A DNA stretch of 16,226 nt, taken from the NCBI GenBank assembly GCA_963776275.1, contig CAVZMI010000022.1, positions 1 through 16,226 of the forward strand, read 5' to 3'. Position numbers and translations under genes: made by a program. The notes below the pieces were generated by a model. That model saw only the letters and a program-made list of their open reading frames with translations. It did not search any database and was not told the origin of the DNA. Below, piece by piece: positions 3,473 to 12,828 of the stretch. Positions within the stretch are counted from its first letter, which is position 1. Each line of letters opens with the position of its first letter. The stretch comes from Ignavibacteriota bacterium (GTDB taxonomy: Bacteria > Bacteroidota > Ignavibacteria > UBA10030 > CAVZMI01).

Positions 3473-3583
3473 GGTTGCCACGACTCGCTTTTTAGAGATT
3501 ATAATCGTGGTTCGACCCCTCGATAGACTCGGGGCAGGTAAGTTCTCGACAAGCTCGACCCAAGGCTCGGCAACCTGGCTATT
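3473..3583. repeat. Degenerate copy of array unit A with nested short REP-like hairpins
   Basis: GGTTGCCACGACTCGCTTTTTAGAG...GGCTCGGCAACCTGGCTATT matches the start and end of unit A of the 174-bp array. The interior carries CCCCTCGATAGACTCGGGG and CTCGACAAGCTCGA. Confidence 0.75.
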
Positions 3584-3593
3584 GATAATTAAA

Positions 3594-3887
3594 TTAATGC
3601 CGTTTCTTTTTACTTTGACACACCGCTAATTCATGTAACTTGGTAAGGTTTTTTTCGATCAATGCATGTTTCTTATCATGGGACCAATTCTGGATCTGTT
3701 TTTCACGTAAGAATGCATCAATCACACAACGATATTTTTCATAATATACTAATTTTACAGGTAATCGATCCTTTGTATAATTTGCTCCTTGACCACTTTG
3801 GTGTTCCTTCAATCTTTTCTCAATATCCTTTGTACTTCCTGTATAGTATGTTCCATCGCAACATTCAAGAATATAAAGATAAGGCAT
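3594..3887 (-). CDS. Small GIY-YIG nuclease family protein (UPF0213-like)
   Basis: YLYILEC...YYTGST...RLKEH...ANYTK..LPVKLVYYE...AFLREKQIQ. Confidence 0.9.
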   Translation of the reverse strand: MPYLYILECCDGTYYTGSTKDIEKRLKEHQSGQGANYTKDRLPVKLVYYEKYRCVIDAFLREKQIQNWSHDKKHALIEKNLTKLHELAVCQSKKKRH

Positions 3888-3928
3888 ATTGTTTTGTAGT
3901 CAGTTCTTCCAATTTTTTGGCTTCTTGT

Positions 3929-4756
3929 GGTTGCCTCGACTCGCTTCTTAGTATGCTTTCTATATCCGCTCGGCAACCTGGCTGTTTTTTTCCCCTACAG
4001 CCAGTTCCCCGAGCGGACGTGAACGGCTATTTCAACAGCTAGTCGAGGGGAACGATCCTCAAATAAAAATTCTCAATCATAATGGTTTCCGATTCTATAA
4101 CAGGTTGCCTCGACTCGTTTTTTAGAGTGCTACTTATATTCGCTCGGCAACCTGGCTATTTTTTTCCCCTACAGCCAGTTCCCCGAACGGATGTGAACGG
4201 CTATTTCAACAGCTAGTCGAGGGGAACGATCCTCAAATAAAAATTCTCAATCATAATGGTTTCCGATTCTATAACAGGTTGCCTCGACTCGTTTTTTAGA
4301 GTGCTACTTATATTCGCTCGGCAACCTGGCTATTTTTTTCCCCTACAGCCAGTTCCCCGAACGGATGTGAACGGCTATTTCAACAGCTAGTCGAGGGGAA
4401 CGATCCTCAAATAAAAATTCTCAATCATAATGGTTTCCGATTCTATAACAGGTTGCCTCGACTCGTTTTTTAGAGTGCTACTTATATTCGCTCGGCAACC
4501 TGGCTATTTTTTTCCCCTACAGCCAGTTCCCCGAACGGATGTGAACGGCTATTTCAACAGCTAGTCGAGGGGAACGATCCTCAAATAAAAATTCTCAATC
4601 ATAATGGTTTCCGATTCTATAACAGGTTGCCTCGACTCGTTTTTTAGAGTGCTACTTATATTCGCTCGGCAACCTGGCTATTTTTTTCCCCTACAGCCAG
4701 TTCCCCGAACGGATGTGAACGGCTATTTCAACAGCTAGTCGAGGGGAACGATCCTC
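3929..4756. repeat. Tandem array, 174-bp period, ~4.8 copies; BIME-like (two inverted 50-bp hairpin units per period)
   Basis: GGTTGCCTCGACT starts at 3929, 4103, 4277, 4451 and 4625. Copies 2-5 look identical and copy 1 is slightly diverged. Confidence 0.95.
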
Positions 4757-9382: not shown

Positions 9383-10311
9383 TACCCATCAAATCAGAAT
9401 ACATTATTAAGCAGCTCTGACTAGGTATAACGCTATATCAGGAAGGCATGTTAACTCCGCTTGTAACCCGGAATCGTTCTATTAATTGTAGAGGAACAAT
9501 TCTGGGAAAAAATGGAACAGCTTCAAAGTAAGCCGGGATTTTTCGAGACAGTCCGGCGCGAGATGCGCCTGAAAAACTATAGCTCGAAAACGATCAAATC
9601 GTATATTAGCTGGCTTCATTCCTTTGTGAGTTATTTTCGACCGCGGCACCCGCGCGATGTGACAGAGGACGATATTCACTCGTACCTGCTTTACTTGATC
9701 GAGGAACGTCAATTCCAGGCATCGAGCGTTAACCAGGTTTTTAACGCTCTACGATTACTGTATGTCGATTTATATGGAATGCCTTTTAAGATCGATTCAA
9801 TACCTCGGCCGATGAAGGAGAAAAGACTACCTGATGTATTGAATCAGGAAGAGGTTCTAAGAATATTCAGAGAAATTGATAATCTAAAACATAAAGTAAT
9901 GTTGATGATCGCCTATGGAAGCGGATTACGCGTGGGCGAGGTTGTTCGTTTGCGAACCGAAGATCTTGATGTGGTAAGGATGGTTATTCATGTACGAGAA
10001 GGAAAGCATAAAAAGGATCGATACACAATTCTTTCAAGAGCGGTACTGAGTGCTCTCCATGCTTATGTACAATTATATAAGATTACTGAGGTCGGATGGC
10101 TTTTTCCCGGTGCAAAACCGGGACGACATTTATCAGAACGGAGCATCCAGGAAGTCATTGAACGTGCAGTGAAATCAGCCAGTATCCGCAAGACGGTCTC
10201 TATGCATACACTCCGGCATTCATTTGCGACAGCTCTATTGGAACATGGAACGGATATACGGTACATTCAAGAGTTATTAGGACATGGCAGTATTAAAACG
10301 ACAGAAATTTA

Positions 10312-10618
10312 CCCCGTGAGATATCATTTCGTCTAAATAAAGAATCACATCATGATAGCAATCCAATATTACTTCGTCTATGTTCTACAATCAATGAAAG
10401 ATGGTTTTTTCTATGTCGGATTTACTCGGGATCTAAATAAAAGAATGACAGAACATGATGAAGGAAAGGTTTTTTCAACAAAGCACAGGCAACCTTTGGT
10501 CCTGGTTTACTATGAGGGATCTTTGAGTCAGAAAGATGCAACAAGGAGAGAAAAGTATCTAAAAACCGCATGGGGAAAAAGATACATAAAGAATCGATTA
10601 AAAGATAATCTCACGGGG
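10312..10618 (+). mobile_element. 307-bp TIR element with TA target duplication encoding only a GIY-YIG nuclease
   Basis: TA|CCCCGTGAGAT (10312-10322)...ATCTCACGGGG (10608-10618)|TA. Removing it and one TA restores ATT TAT ACT CAT (IYTH). Confidence 0.88.
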
Positions 10619-10735
10619 TATACTCATATAAGTACACGCACAATCGGGAAGATAAAAAGTCCACTTGATTCATTGGTAGAGGAGTTACCAAGAGAAGAAA
10701 AAGAAAATAAACTTTATCTGCCTAATACAGATTAA
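10352..10735 (+). CDS. GIY-YIG nuclease (89 codons) fused in frame to the displaced recombinase C-terminal tail
   Basis: FVYVLQS...FYVGFT.DL.KR..EH.EG...ST..R.PL.LVYYE...A..REKYLK...LTG, then YTHIST...SPLD. Confidence 0.85.
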   Translation: MIAIQYYFVYVLQSMKDGFFYVGFTRDLNKRMTEHDEGKVFSTKHRQPLVLVYYEGSLSQKDATRREKYLKTAWGKRYIKNRLKDNLTGYTHISTRTIGKIKSPLDSLVEELPREEKENKLYLPNTD

Positions 10736-10750
10736 AAAAATAATTACGCA

Positions 10751-10776
10751 ATATAGCGTCTATACAGATGTTAGTT
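10751..10776 (+). other. Putative attI-like site (crossover G|TT at 10770/10771)
   Basis: GTTAGTTGCAAGCGC (10770-10784) is 14/15 complementary to GCGCCTGCAACTAAC (12821-12835) at the first attC. No hairpin arm lies upstream of it. Confidence 0.65.
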
Positions 10777-11218
10777 GCAAGCGCCGCCAGAAAGTTATTA
10801 AAAGAGTGGTTGCGACTTGTTGGCGCGCGGCAATGCTGGAACACTTAACATGAGACCTGATAAATTCGTGGAGGATTTTTATCAAGGGCAATCAATGAAG
10901 AGACGAGTTGGTATCTCCGTGGCGACCGTTGCTTACCATGGCGCCGATGACCAAGCTGTTCCAAAGGTGTCAGTCAAGGTCATCTTTAGCCGCAGTTCCG
11001 GTCTCGGAGTAAATCAGACAGAAAAAGGCAGAATATGAAGAGAAAGTTACCGTTCCTTTTACTATTCGGTTTTCTAATCGCGGGCTGCTACTCATCGAAG
11101 TTCGCAACATATCAATCGCCGTGTGCAACTAGTGAGACTTGGCAGGTCAGAGTTGAGAAATCGGGACTATATCCAGCTATCAAGGTAATAGTCAATGATT
11201 CAACCGTAATAACTAAAT

Positions 11219-12364
11219 TGTATTATTAAGGAGATGTGTTTACACACATCAGTTAACTGTTCTTTGAAATGAAGGTCATTGGAAGGACCTTCGAGTTGTC
11301 GTATACTTGTGTCTGGATAGGACACAAGGACAACCGGGAGATCTCCAATGACCACAGACGATCTGATCATTAACCAGCGTCGATCGTTATTAATCTACGC
11401 TGAACGTCACGGTGTGAGCCAAGCATGCCGTACTTTTGGGATGAGCCGAACGAGCTTCTACAAAATAAAAGCACAGTTCATCAAAACAGGGTCATTAGCT
11501 CCAAAGGTACGACGAAAGCCTAAAATGCCCAATGAGATGGCACTGAGCAAGAAAAAACTCTTACTAGAACTCGTCCAAGAACATCCAGCATGGGGACCAC
11601 GACGATATGCCTATATTTTTCAACAGCAAGGCATTTCCGTTACTCATGTGGCGCTCTGGTACCACCTAAAGCGTTTTGGTCTGAATCGTCGCTATCAACG
11701 ATTGGTCTATCTTGAACGTGCTCGTATGGACAACCGACCATTGACCGAACAAACGTTACGCGTGATGAAACGTCAGATCAACAAAGTCAATGAAGGACTC
11801 TGGCCGGGGCATATTGTCGCTCTAGATACCTTTTACGTGGGTCATCTCAAGCGTGTTGGACGAATCTACCAGATCTCTGGTATTGATCTGTGCTCTCGCT
11901 ATGGCTGGGCAAAACTCTACACTCGTAAAGATCAATCAGCAACGATCGATTTGGTCGAAAATGTGCTTATCCCGAAGTTCTACGACAACGGTATCAATCT
12001 CGAGTATGTACTGACGGATAATGGCACTGAGTTCACCGGCAGTCAATTCCAGCGTATGCTTGCTGCTTATGATATCAAGCACAATCGAATACCCAAAGGC
12101 AAGCCGATCCTTAATGGCACCTGTGAACGTTTTCAAAGAACAATCCTGGAAGAGTTCTATCAACCAATGTTCCGTACTCGATTCTTCAATTCTCTTCCAG
12201 AGTTACAACAAGCTCTTGATAAATATTTATGGTATTATAATTTTCAACGTGCTCACTTCGGACTAGCTAAAAAAGGGGCTATTCCGATTGATGTATTTAA
12301 ATCTAAACATAGTGCTTTACGACAACAATTTCAAAAACTGTTAACTTGACTCTTTAGCAGTACA
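11219..12364 (+). mobile_element. IS481-family insertion sequence (1146 bp), 7-bp target duplication ACTAAAT
   Basis: Ends are TGTATTATTAAGGAG and CTCTTTAGCAGTACA (11/15 inverted match). ACTAAAT occurs at 11212-11218 and 12365-12371. Confidence 0.88.
11348..12349 (+). CDS. IS481-family DDE transposase
   Basis: N-terminal HTH (VSQACRTFGMSRTSFYK), then PG.IVALDTFYVG, LTDNGTEF, NGTCERFQRT..EEF and YNFQRAH. Confidence 0.9.
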   Translation: MTTDDLIINQRRSLLIYAERHGVSQACRTFGMSRTSFYKIKAQFIKTGSLAPKVRRKPKMPNEMALSKKKLLLELVQEHPAWGPRRYAYIFQQQGISVTHVALWYHLKRFGLNRRYQRLVYLERARMDNRPLTEQTLRVMKRQINKVNEGLWPGHIVALDTFYVGHLKRVGRIYQISGIDLCSRYGWAKLYTRKDQSATIDLVENVLIPKFYDNGINLEYVLTDNGTEFTGSQFQRMLAAYDIKHNRIPKGKPILNGTCERFQRTILEEFYQPMFRTRFFNSLPELQQALDKYLWYYNFQRAHFGLAKKGAIPIDVFKSKHSALRQQFQKLLT

Positions 12365-12828
12365 ACTAAATCGGTCCCTGTTTTTGATTGGAAAGGGATC
12401 AATGCAACTGGAACTTATAGCGGCCACAGCGTCGAACTGATGGTGACCTACAATAGCGGATTCCTTGGGATCGGCTCATACTACAATGCGATTGTAACGA
12501 TTGACAATAAATTCTTTGTAGGACAATTTATGCTCCCGACAATAAATCTATGCACCGACTGAAAAAATCTCACGAAAATGACCGGCCGAAATATTTGGAA
12601 CCGCGGTGGAATGAACGATGAGACTATGATATTGCGCATGGGTCGTCATCCCAAGCGTGCGGCAGTCACGAGGAAGCAGTCAATTGTTCGGAAAGTTCAA
12701 CGTGTCCTTAGCGTCTGCAGTATGCCACGATTGGCAAGAGAACTGGCAAGGCACTGCCACCATGGAGAACGCGCGCCAACTGTCCGGATTGATCCCTTTG
12801 GGAAAAGGGCAGTGGAAGCGGCGCCTGC

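Follow-up and report, generated by a model that had tools for sequence, protein, structure and literature searches.

A repeat-bounded GIY-YIG nuclease insert in a recombinase gene: a possible minimal mobile element of bacteria

The insert at the catalytic tyrosine codon

In an Ignavibacteriota genome, a tyrosine recombinase gene is interrupted at its catalytic codon by a short segment with inverted repeats at its ends and a single GIY-YIG nuclease gene between them, which raises the question of how such a unit came to be there and whether its own enzyme could have moved it. The locus lies in the window, the whole stretch of 16,226 nt that we analyzed. The 5´ part of the recombinase gene (Phage_int_SAM_4 and Phage_integrase) occupies 9512-10311 and the 3´ part, (Y)THISTRTIGKIKSPLDS..., occupies 10621-10735, both on the plus strand, with the Tyr codon TAT at 10619-10621. 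The insertion point is directly after ...KTTEI-TA, that is, in the catalytic-Tyr codon as the preliminary description had stated, and the interrupted frame now closes as ...EIYPVRYHFV* at 10336, within the element. The same genome contains an uninterrupted paralogue (G000:C23, about 235186-236654, minus strand) reading ...TTEIYTHISTRTIGKIKSPLD, and the net insertion in the window is therefore 309 bp (10312-10620, plus strand), composed of a 307-bp core and 2 nt.

The perfect terminal repeats previously noted around this core were recovered as a 13-nt inverted repeat, TACCCCGTGAGAT at 10310-10322 and ATCTCACGGGGTA at 10608-10620, with 100% complementary arms spaced 285 nt apart; by our own arithmetic, ~0.01 such pairs are expected by chance per 1 kb. 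Aligned to the family described below, the left repeat core is CCCCGTGAGATA (10312-10323, plus strand) and the right repeat core is AATCTCACGGGG (10607-10618, plus strand; TATCTCACGGGG in the family), which codes for the C-terminal nuclease residues (N/Y)-L-T-G. The left 4-nt flank, TTTA (10308-10311, plus strand; family consensus TTYA), corresponds to the host codons ATT TA, and the right flank is TATA (10619-10622, plus strand; family consensus TRAA, where TRA is the ORF stop codon). Because TA is present on both sides of the insert, the position of the 2 extra nt is ambiguous. The TA duplication proposed earlier is compatible with the window copy (net +2), but the paralogue, with TAC ACG in place of the window's TAT ACT, leaves it unproven, and it is not a feature of the family. 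For the window element modeled as single-stranded DNA, the end stem is predicted to close both the MFE and centroid structures.

The nuclease ORF (10352-10618, plus strand; 89 aa within the element) is the only ORF inside the insert, as first described, and matches Pfam GIY-YIG PF01541 with an E of 3e-14 (53.4 bits versus a cut-off of 22.6). While the ORFs of relatives have TAA or TGA directly 3´ of the right end, the window ORF is without its own stop codon; its frame extends across the tail of the recombinase and closes at 10733-10735, for a total of 127 aa. In the window's genome (3.7 Mb, 96% complete), the exact end 11-mer is found solely at the element's own two ends, and an end-pair scan gave one element copy and zero mini-elements. 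A candidate second copy from a loose pair scan (C18:82944-83197; 3 pairs observed versus 2 in the control) lies inside an unrelated open frame and was discarded. Among the holders listed in a search of public sequencing runs, two DNA runs contained 5-6% of the sampled words and none was an RNA run.

Family members keep their two ends complementary

A scan of 185,579 species genomes gave 560 relatives. The family proteins are 87-89 aa, single-domain and of the Slx1/UPF0213/Ssn type, with 23 invariant columns among 65 proteins, including Y10, Y21, R31 and E67. An AlphaFold2 model of the nuclease (pLDDT 91.6) has a predicted GIY-YIG alpha/beta fold, for which the best Foldseek matches were UPF0213 1zg2, Slx1 7cq2, 4xm5 and 6seh; the closest solved structures and sequences are the UPF0213 proteins 1zg2 and 1ywl, and Slx1. 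The nuclease is also homologous to the SRM-flanked genes of Shinella and Azospirillum. With the Azospirillum GIY-YIG gene, which is flanked by four SRM hairpins, hhalign gave a probability of 97.9% and 39% identity over 70 of 87 columns. In the comparison with SRM-flanked homologues, BLASTP gave 42% identity over 66 residues, and Y10, Y21, R31 and E67 each have their counterpart in the alignment with one of them. Peculiar to this clade are the last 17 residues of the protein (WGKRYIKNRLxNYLTG). In one order, 27 of 30 family ORFs are free of internal stops. Searches with tblastn of phages (5 records) and plasmids (7 records) returned distant small GIY-YIG genes only, at 42% identity or less and with the C-terminus uncovered, and there were 0 relatives on viral contigs.

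The preliminary description had suggested looking for the same ends around GIY-YIG homologs. Allowing up to 2 substitutions per arm, we detected a matching end pair in 89 of the 92 ORF copies examined (87 loci); the three copies without a pair in the search span (L044, a second copy in L085, and L114) were left out. The element core is 266-385 bp long (median 284) with two 12-nt ends, CCCCGTGAGATA...TATCTCACGGGG, and conserved 4-nt flanks TTYA...TRAA, seen as TTCA/TAAA 35 times and as TTTA/TGAA 13 times. We considered defining the repeat as 16 nt including the flanks; the third flank position pairs in only 17 of 83 copies, however, so the flanks are conserved and yet are not a plain extension of the stem. 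Between copies in tandem, the junction is GGGG-4 nt-CCCC. Within the ends, the variable positions 0, 3 and 6 coincide with the third codon positions for Gly, Thr and Leu, respectively, in the C-terminal YLTG. Across 83 distinct elements these positions show four, three and two Watson-Crick pair types, respectively, and the left and right ends match in 78/83, 80/83 and 81/83. Synonymous changes in the YLTG codons are compensated in the left end, and the pairing is preserved. The nuclease gene is physically tied to the ends, since its last four codons and its stop are contained in the right end and its start codon frequently lies against the left one.

The overlap of the ORF with both ends, together with the co-variation of the ends with synonymous changes, is best fit by a tiny element mobilized by its own GIY-YIG enzyme, one of the two possibilities raised originally. 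We lean, by a little over even chances, toward placing the insert in a widespread family of minimal selfish elements in which nuclease and stem are self-linked, akin to the Ssn/hairpin kind, with the mechanism inferred. In size, the insert may rank with the smallest of the self-contained mobile elements of bacteria.

Insertion sites, mini-elements and alternative explanations

Most copies interrupt genes, many of which belong to other mobile elements, and host genes otherwise vary. Co-oriented insertions recur at fixed motifs in tyrosine recombinases, YhcG nucleases, Bro-N and IS200-like transposases. The V|KTTMIY site is occupied in 7 copies, the YhcG site GQ(I/M)|Y.NY in 9 copies, EYD|YS is a recurrent site in IS200-like genes, and the catalytic-Tyr codon is hit in both the window and L116, two copies that do not group as sisters in the tree of elements. 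Independent sites and empty alleles, proposed earlier as a further check, were both found: there are more than 25 distinct sites, and presence or absence differs between paralogues and between species of the same genus. Within one genus, an IS200-like site is filled in G047 and G209 and empty in G193 and G081. At the verified empty site, GATT|ATTC becomes GATT-TA-core-TGA-ATTC without duplication, and the TA of the flank TTTA comes in with the element. No empty alleles of the recombinase N-terminal and YhcG GQ(I/M) sites were found in the carrier genomes G003 and G061-G066.

A fixed insertion rule was rejected, as the number of nt beyond the core varies between sites from +2 (window, L110) through +3 and +4 (L050, L086, L100, L043, L107, L068 and L082) to +5 (L025, L121 and L047), most of these figures being derived from conserved protein motifs and not from true empty alleles. 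We read the variable junctions as a probable overlap of 0-4 nt between the flanks of the unit and the target. Near-identical ORF-bearing copies were found solely where the host genes are paralogues or homologues and the site is identical (L089/L093, L090/L095 and L067/L083), and thus no recent jump of the ORF-bearing form to unrelated sites is seen, which counts against the selfish-element reading.

We also detected ORF-less mini-elements of 32-140 bp with the ends of the family, some nested inside others, at many non-homologous and often intergenic sites. Genome G018 has four near-identical minis at different loci along with one ORF copy, and one mini found in two Verrucomicrobia is missing from a third.

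Homologous genes from different lineages carry insertions at the same codons, as would be seen if the nuclease cut empty alleles of conserved genes and recombinational repair copied the element, with the ends irrelevant to movement. Such homing-type spread, which we regard as unlikely, shares with homing endonucleases (I-TevI, phage Seg) the GIY-YIG fold and the repeated insertion at one position of conserved genes. On the element tree, copies cluster by insertion site (35 label changes versus 46-56 in 500 shuffles, with labels assigned manually from flanking peptides and 20 of 85 rows unlabelled), and other copies in the same genome have diverged to 71-78% likeness. In the window, a divergence patch relative to the paralogue begins at the first base after the insert (10621-10767, plus strand), with 35 differences in 147 nt compared to 4 in the 250 nt preceding the insert and 1 in the 451 nt beyond the patch. 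This one-sided tract, which resembles an allele remnant in a same-genus genome, could be a co-conversion tract. A second patch (9449-9589) is far from the insert, however, so that patches in this gene pair have other causes too. Both the patch beside the insert and the clustering by site also fit spread by homologous recombination, which counts against the selfish-element reading. Terminal repeats are superfluous for homing, but the complementarity of the ends is preserved by compensated synonymous changes, and homing sits poorly with the nested and intergenic minis and with the spread of sites over at least six unrelated gene families. Additionally, the protein is without a DNA-binding domain of the I-TevI or Seg enzyme kind, and there is no intron or phage context.

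It is quite unlikely, in our estimation, that the nuclease and dispersed hairpins form a domesticated system of the Ssn/NTS kind that serves the cell, for example by restricting incoming ssDNA, with the copies as immobile relics. The homology to SRM-flanked Ssn-type proteins is in line with this proposal, as is the low ORF copy number (1-3 in each carrier of the order), and in Chenal et al., 2025 (PMC11893778) the Neisseria Ssn is described as a modulator of transformation. Genes interrupted in the sense orientation in 63 of 85 copies, many of them in mobile elements, are nevertheless an unlikely home for a host function. The family ORF is patchy, occurring in 22 of 201 genomes of one order, and yet reaches many phyla at 61-71% protein identity, although the NCBI phylum labels of the MAGs behind this spread may be loose. 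Its presence also varies within a genus.

The preliminary description had likened the insert to IS630/Tc1-mariner elements and offered, as its second possibility, a MITE whose ends are moved in trans by a DDE family (IS630/Tc1-mariner-like or other) with the GIY-YIG gene as a passenger. The short terminal inverted repeats, the TA on both sides of the window copy with a net +2 that fits TA duplication, and the occurrence of minis in nine genomes without the family ORF are all in keeping with a MITE. However, TA is present on both sides in 16 of 84 copies versus a shuffled mean of 21.3, direct repeats of 1-8 nt beside the core or outside the 4-nt flanks were not above those of shuffled pairs, and the verified IS200-like site has no duplication. 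No DDE transposase with the same ends was found, the end-pair scan of the window's nearly complete genome, which has no other exact copy of the end, yielded nothing else real, and no other gene recurs next to 89 elements. In addition, the right end contains the C-terminus of the ORF and is immediately followed by its stop, and synonymous changes in the ORF are mirrored in the left end. The IS630 comparison thus did not hold for the family, and we consider the MITE very unlikely.

Finally, action of the paired ends in the transcript, as a splice-like, processing or translational control stem on the host gene, is suggested by the co-orientation with the host gene, by a stem that brings the host-gene halves together and by a 63-nt mini in frame within a YhcG-like gene, but is extremely improbable given that the number of nt to be removed for restoration of the host frame varies by site, that unpaired sense-strand positions are A-C as often as G-U (7 versus 4 at position 4), that no Rfam family matched at E up to 1 in 9400-11300, and that Ssn relatives are reported as inactive on RNA (PMC11893778).

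Proposed mechanism and relation to known systems

For the preferred element, we envision that the two ends pair in single-stranded DNA to give a stem with a short 5´ leader, and that the encoded nuclease would recognize this stem and cut adjacent to it, in the manner of Ssn nucleases at their hairpins. Host repair might then copy or join the break or the released unit at sites sharing 0-4 nt with the flanks (TT/AA-type), which would produce no target duplication. ORF-less minis with the same ends would be non-autonomous derivatives. Copies would ride along with mobile host genes and may pass between homologous alleles by recombination; the window copy could have reached the catalytic-Tyr codon in one member of the recombinase paralogue pair either by landing there or by recombination. 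To our knowledge a hydrolytic GIY-YIG nuclease is incapable of strand transfer, and host functions must therefore be invoked, which counts against this reading. Also counting against it are the paired ends without the family ORF in nine genomes of the order. On the same side, the copy in the window's genome is single and has lost its stop codon, and the junctions are irregular, with 2 to 5 nt beyond the core.

A bolder form of this reading, which we put forward tentatively and at less than even chances, is that the family represents autonomous DNA transposons of a new class, smaller (~280 bp) than any other known, in which a sole 87-aa hydrolytic GIY-YIG protein recognizes the ssDNA stem of its own ends and leaves joining to host repair, with REP-like minis across at least a dozen phyla and residence mainly in the genes of other mobile elements. 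If the nuclease does move its own 280-bp unit, the lower size limit of autonomous mobile elements would move down to this length. If true, a transposition chemistry would be added, a hydrolytic GIY-YIG cut plus host repair, outside the accepted bacterial IS families, and Ssn nucleases, so far ssDNA cutters with hairpin partners, would gain a natural history as selfish elements. The many enzyme/stem pairs with compensated variants (G/T, C/T and A/C/G/T at three stem positions) would then be available for engineering sequence-specific ssDNA cutters.

The earlier statement that no bacterial element with bounding repeats is known to have a GIY-YIG gene as its only gene no longer holds. Chenal et al., 2025 (PMC11893778) described small GIY-YIG genes with hairpin repeats on either side, in a layout likened to IS, and in that paper the Ssn enzymes cleave ssDNA beside their hairpin and mobility of Ssn/hairpin units is raised only as a hypothesis. 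The Ssn criteria given there are a single GIY-YIG domain of 150 aa or less and either a top CDD match of cd10448 or a blastp match to N. meningitidis SsnA (CAX49033.1) with E<1e-10 and 75% cover; the family proteins, at 87-89 aa with one domain, are within the size limit. Both groups are single-domain and ~90 aa with the same catalytic spacing (Y6/Y17/E64 in Nm SsnA and Y10/Y21/E67 here), and both have genes bounded by inverted-repeat DNA capable of forming stems with extra ORF-less repeat copies in the genome. The repeats are unrelated in sequence, however, and the SRM/NTS motif HGTCWY... is absent near the elements: the SRM pattern matched 6 times across the 3.7-Mb genome and nowhere in the window or in the 111,315 nt surrounding 89 elements, compared to 4 matches each at the Shinella and Azospirillum control loci. 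The gene here is inside one long stem-loop between half-sites, whereas the Ssn gene is between complete hairpins. Copies here also sit within genes, with presence or absence and nested insertions documented. In the literature, we found no CCCCGTGAGATA-type or other terminal-repeat bacterial GIY-YIG elements besides those of PMC11893778, whose supplementary tables might already include this clade.

With IS200/IS605 and REP/REPIN-RAYT systems, the family has in common DNA stems instead of protein-bound flat ends, the lack of target duplication, a short conserved motif 5´ of the left end, and a single enzyme gene linked to many short non-autonomous hairpin copies. The enzyme differs, being a hydrolytic GIY-YIG nuclease here and an HUH Y1 transposase there, and some of the TTYA/TRAA flank sequence is brought in by the element itself. 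Unlike in IS200/IS605, there is no subterminal hairpin at each end; the ends of the element pair with each other. Stand-alone Slx1-like/UPF0213 (YhbQ-type) proteins are described as the minimal GIY-YIG domain in Dunin-Horkawicz et al., 2006 (PMC1564403). The gene here is part of a repeat-bounded insert, while the stand-alone proteins are encoded by ordinary single-copy genes. We know of no bounding repeats for stand-alone genes of the Slx1-like/UPF0213 (YhbQ-type) kind.

The inserts also matter for annotation, as the codons at which they disrupt recombinase, YhcG, Bro-N and IS200-like genes are fixed, and in-frame peptide insertions or fusions are possible that would otherwise be mistaken for pseudogenes or odd gene variants. 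As judged from its reading frames, the window copy is predicted to truncate the recombinase after the Tyr and to fuse the nuclease to the recombinase tail.

An insert at the catalytic tyrosine and its empty allele

The insert in the window is bounded by two 13-nt arms, TACCCCGTGAGAT (10310-10322) and ATCTCACGGGGTA (10608-10620), which are perfect complements of each other, and the sole ORF between them, starting at 10352, matches the Pfam GIY-YIG model with 53.4 bits (cut-off 22.6). The nuclease ORF of the window copy lacks its own stop codon, and a 38-residue recombinase tail is read in frame to 10735. The interrupted gene starts at 9512 and carries Phage_int_SAM_4 and Phage_integrase domains; its top-scoring models, integron-integrase and Xer, both fall under their cut-offs. 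The break (...KTTEI-TA|) lies in the codon of the catalytic tyrosine. Arms, Pfam match and break position thus bear out the preliminary description of inverted-repeat arms around a lone GIY-YIG ORF, inserted at the catalytic-Tyr codon. A whole-genome search of G000, the window's own genome, for the ends or end pairs found no second element.

An empty allele, which that description had proposed to look for, was found on contig C23 of the same genome, which has a ~2-kb duplicated segment in common with C22, the contig of the window. The C23 sequence over the insertion point is GAAATTTAC|ACGCATATAAGT, encoding TTEIYTHIS..., and that of the window is GAAATTTA[core]TATACTCATATAAGT, a net gain of 309 bp. 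The C23 segment also lacks the IS found at 11219-12367, indicating that the window segment received two insertions. This IS encodes an rve-type DDE transposase (ORF 11348-12349) and has three more copies, on C21, C23 and C24, with 99.6-99.9% identity.

The two segments show 4 differences in the 250 nt ahead of the insert, 35 in the 147 nt from the first base past it (10621-10767) and 1 in the 451 nt beyond. In the window's version of the divergent patch, the distal end exactly matches a recombinase-tail remnant from another genome of this genus, and the patch looks like a one-sided exchange tract that arrived with the insert, a reading that is only suggestive because a second patch (21 differences in 9449-9589) is remote from the insert.

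A conserved unit of gene and complementary ends

In a DNA search of 61 related genomes, ORF homologues with ~70% nucleotide identity were detected whose similarity ends at the right end, and six had the same ends. A profile built from seven proteins was then scanned against one genome per species (185,579 species), matching 591 stretches, 560 of which encode a relative. We examined the best 80 of these 560 (61-71% protein identity to the query), the six DNA-search relatives and the window. Records of the best 80 are labelled Ignavibacteria, Chlorobiota, Bacteroidota, Planctomycetota (including Brocadia), Verrucomicrobiota, Nitrospirota, Acidobacteriota, Chloroflexota, KSB1, Calditrichota, Atribacterota, Cloacimonadota and several candidate-phyla-radiation groups. 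A matching end pair, as had been anticipated around GIY-YIG homologues, was present for 89 of the 92 ORF copies, with a core of 266-385 bp (median 284). At L114 the sole matching left end lies ~1.6 kb upstream of the right end, and at L044 motifs resembling the ends are located downstream of the ORF; both loci may represent elements that have received an insertion or been rearranged. The final residues, Y-L-T-G, are encoded by the right end, with TAA or TGA directly after, and the ATG of many copies extends into the inner edge of the left end, so the unit is nearly all gene. Among 201 sampled genomes of the window's order, 22 contain 30 family ORFs (at least 118 bits; next score 95), 27 of them with no internal stop.

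Ends and gene make up a conserved unit in which end complementarity is maintained. Across 83 distinct elements the 12-nt core of the ends, CCCCGTGAGATA, is nearly fixed except at positions 0, 3 and 6 from the outside, which correspond to the third bases of the Gly, Thr and Leu codons in the right end. Left and right ends agree at these positions in 78, 80 and 81 of the 83 elements, with 4, 3 and 2 Watson-Crick pair types, respectively; changes common by descent mean that these counts are not independent events, but there are nonetheless several distinct compensated states. Examples are CCCCGTTAGAT/ATCTAACGGGG, CCCTGTGAGAT/ATCTCACAGGG and, at the outer position, T-, G- or A-CCCGTGAGAT with ATCTCACGGG-A, -C or -T. 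The confinement of variation to third codon positions, matched in the left end, indicates that the peptide is under purifying selection and that the left end tracks silent changes in the right. To judge from the aligned ends, this co-variation points to pairing of the ends, or copying of one from the other, and does not point to a protein reading one fixed sequence. When the window element was folded as single-stranded DNA, the stem of the ends closed both the MFE and the centroid structure.

Many loci also contain mini-elements, in which the same paired ends enclose a loop of 8 to ~120 nt and no ORF; some are in tandem with only TTCA or TGAA as spacer. In the 201 sampled genomes of the order, minis with variant ends (GGGATA, GTGATA, TGGATA) are nested in other minis, between TTTA and TRAA. 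Presence also differs between species as well as between paralogues: in two Verrucomicrobia a YhcG-like gene carries, in frame, a 58-nt mini plus 5 nt that the orthologue of a third lacks. The in-frame minis at L048 (1337-1394) and in the G065 orthologue occupy the same site with perfectly conserved ends and ~80% identical flanks, and their loops, both 34 nt, are almost wholly unlike in sequence. The 12-mer end occurs 150 times in the 201 genomes of the order, compared to ~28 for the reversed control. One comparison genome, G018, has one ORF copy and 24 end copies, among which are those of four near-identical minis at separate loci (L153, L155, L156, L160). Beyond the 12-nt ends these four have a left stretch of ~7 nt (TGGTTTA) and a right stretch of ~10 nt (TGAAT-TGGTTAA) in common, which reads like a direct repeat around core+TGAAT and may represent a favoured target, a duplication or a piece of a longer unit.

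Insertion sites and junctions

Copies are co-oriented with host genes and return to a small set of conserved gene motifs. For 63 of 85 elements the longest open frame next to the element (at least 100 aa) runs on the same strand as the element; for 6 it runs on the opposite strand, and for 16 neither strand has a qualifying frame. Upstream, 53 frames reach at least 100 aa, and among them are 13 tyrosine recombinases of the window's type, 12 DUF1016/YhcG nucleases, 7 Bro-N proteins and 3 SLFN_AlbA_2 proteins; more copies lie close to the start or end of IS200-like genes. Recombinases alone have more than 10 distinct codon-level sites. The catalytic-Tyr site is also filled at L116, a Saprospiraceae record, where the Tyr codon is TAA, the element's stop; since L116 and the window are not sisters on the element tree, this codon was hit twice. 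The stop directly past the right end is missing in about 10 of 84 copies, among them the window, L051, L053, L089, L093, L111 and L119. At the Bro-N site (L051, L053) the nuclease frame continues into the C-terminal part of the host gene, as it does into the recombinase in the window, and thus nuclease-host fusions recur.

The core is flanked by TTYA on its left side and by TRAA on its right, with the two T's and the A retained in 77-79 of 83 elements. No target duplication accompanies the unit: in 84 copies compared with shuffled pairs, no flank repeat of 1-8 nt rose above chance. The TA duplication of the preliminary description is not a family feature, and the flanks as target duplication were ruled out, as 16 of 84 copies have TA on both sides, versus 21.3 in shuffled pairs. 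The cleanest true empty site is in an IS200-like transposase gene of one genus, which reads TATGATT|ATTCTTCTCC (EYDYSS) in G193 and G081 and TATGATT-TA-core-TGA-ATTCTT in G047 and G209, with 293 nt added and zero duplicated. Other increments beyond the core, derived from conserved host motifs, are +2 in the window, +4 as CA...TA into GTT|AAA (the V|KTTMIY site of recombinases and the RE...|N.I.H.DY site of SLFN_AlbA_2 genes), +4 as ...TAAA past host TTCA or TTCT at RHS|FATH, and +5 at some other sites. These irregular junctions are among the weakest points of our account. The final flanks are TTYA...TRAA in every junction case, and we infer that the eight flank bases are part of the unit, which would join via a target overlap of 0-4 nt per side.

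Relation to Ssn nucleases and a candidate mechanism

An AlphaFold2 model from a 65-sequence alignment (pLDDT 91.6) has a GIY-YIG fold with two C-terminal helices, and Y10, Y21, R31 and E67 are invariant in the 65 proteins. Among solved structures, the protein is nearest to UPF0213 proteins (1zg2, 1ywl) and to the nuclease domain of the structure-selective enzyme Slx1. Of the systems described so far, the Ssn family (PMC11893778) comes closest. Its members, GIY-YIG enzymes of 94 aa, bind to a hairpin repeat (SRM) in single-stranded DNA, which they cut a few bases upstream of the repeat; the genes are flanked by their own hairpin repeats, a layout the authors find IS-like. As stand-ins for SsnA we took Shinella and Azospirillum plasmid genes, found by tblastn with the window protein and each flanked by four SRM hairpins; the family profile aligned to them with an hhalign probability of 97.9% (39% identity, 70 columns). 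The SRM pattern was absent around all 89 elements. The clade is therefore an Ssn relative with another DNA partner and layout: Ssn genes lie between hairpin repeats, whereas here the gene is inside the stem-loop. A possible descent of small, hairpin-flanked GIY-YIG genes from IS-like elements has already been raised in print (PMC11893778). The clade with its terminal-repeat layout was not found in the literature searched, though the supplements of that paper may list it; nor, in that literature, was a link between variation in the ends and silent codon changes, or within-gene sites, empty sites and nested minis of such elements.

The ends would pair in single-stranded DNA, the nuclease would, by analogy with Ssn and Slx1, cut beside the stem on either strand, and host repair would copy or join the unit at TT/AA-like sites via short overlaps, with spread between genomes aided by host-gene mobility and recombination between alleles. 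We lean slightly towards this package as a whole. Pure homing is unlikely, though the best placed of the alternatives. With 65 rows of the element tree hand-labelled in 25 site classes, 35 label changes were counted (minimum possible 24; 46-56 in 500 shuffles), so lineages tend to keep a site yet do switch. We saw no ORF-bearing copy that had recently jumped to an unrelated site, which is a further weak point of the pairing-and-repair account. Domestication as an Ssn-like host function, to be set between the homology to the stand-ins and the differing presence of copies, seems less probable again. Mobilisation in trans of a MITE with the nuclease as cargo is improbable; paired ends do occur with no family ORF in nine of the 201 genomes, and the right end is itself coding sequence. 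A role at the RNA level, for which co-orientation with host genes might speak, we regard as very improbable.

The other 12 GIY-YIG matches of the window's genome form a separate subfamily (29-43% identity) without the window element's ends, and most are located within or next to tRNA genes that have duplicated tRNA segments (C10:40699-41970; C21:75510-75737; C20:153737-153973; C37:15655-15888 and 20839-21072). The C10 locus comprises four tandem 349-bp units, each with a GIY-YIG ORF and a tRNA-Met-like copy that has a GC hairpin in place of the D-loop, and an intact tRNA-Met precedes them. In a relative, L040 of G048, the order is a duplicated 5´ 25 nt of the tRNA, hairpin, ORF and intact tRNA. 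From their arrangement, these units look like a second, tRNA-targeting kind of cassette. The window itself carries a second small GIY-YIG gene of another subfamily (3565-4161, match 3681-3881, minus strand), which is flanked by tRNA D-arm-like repeats (agccaggttgccgagcgg) and has 84% DNA identity to G000:C26:29229-29833.
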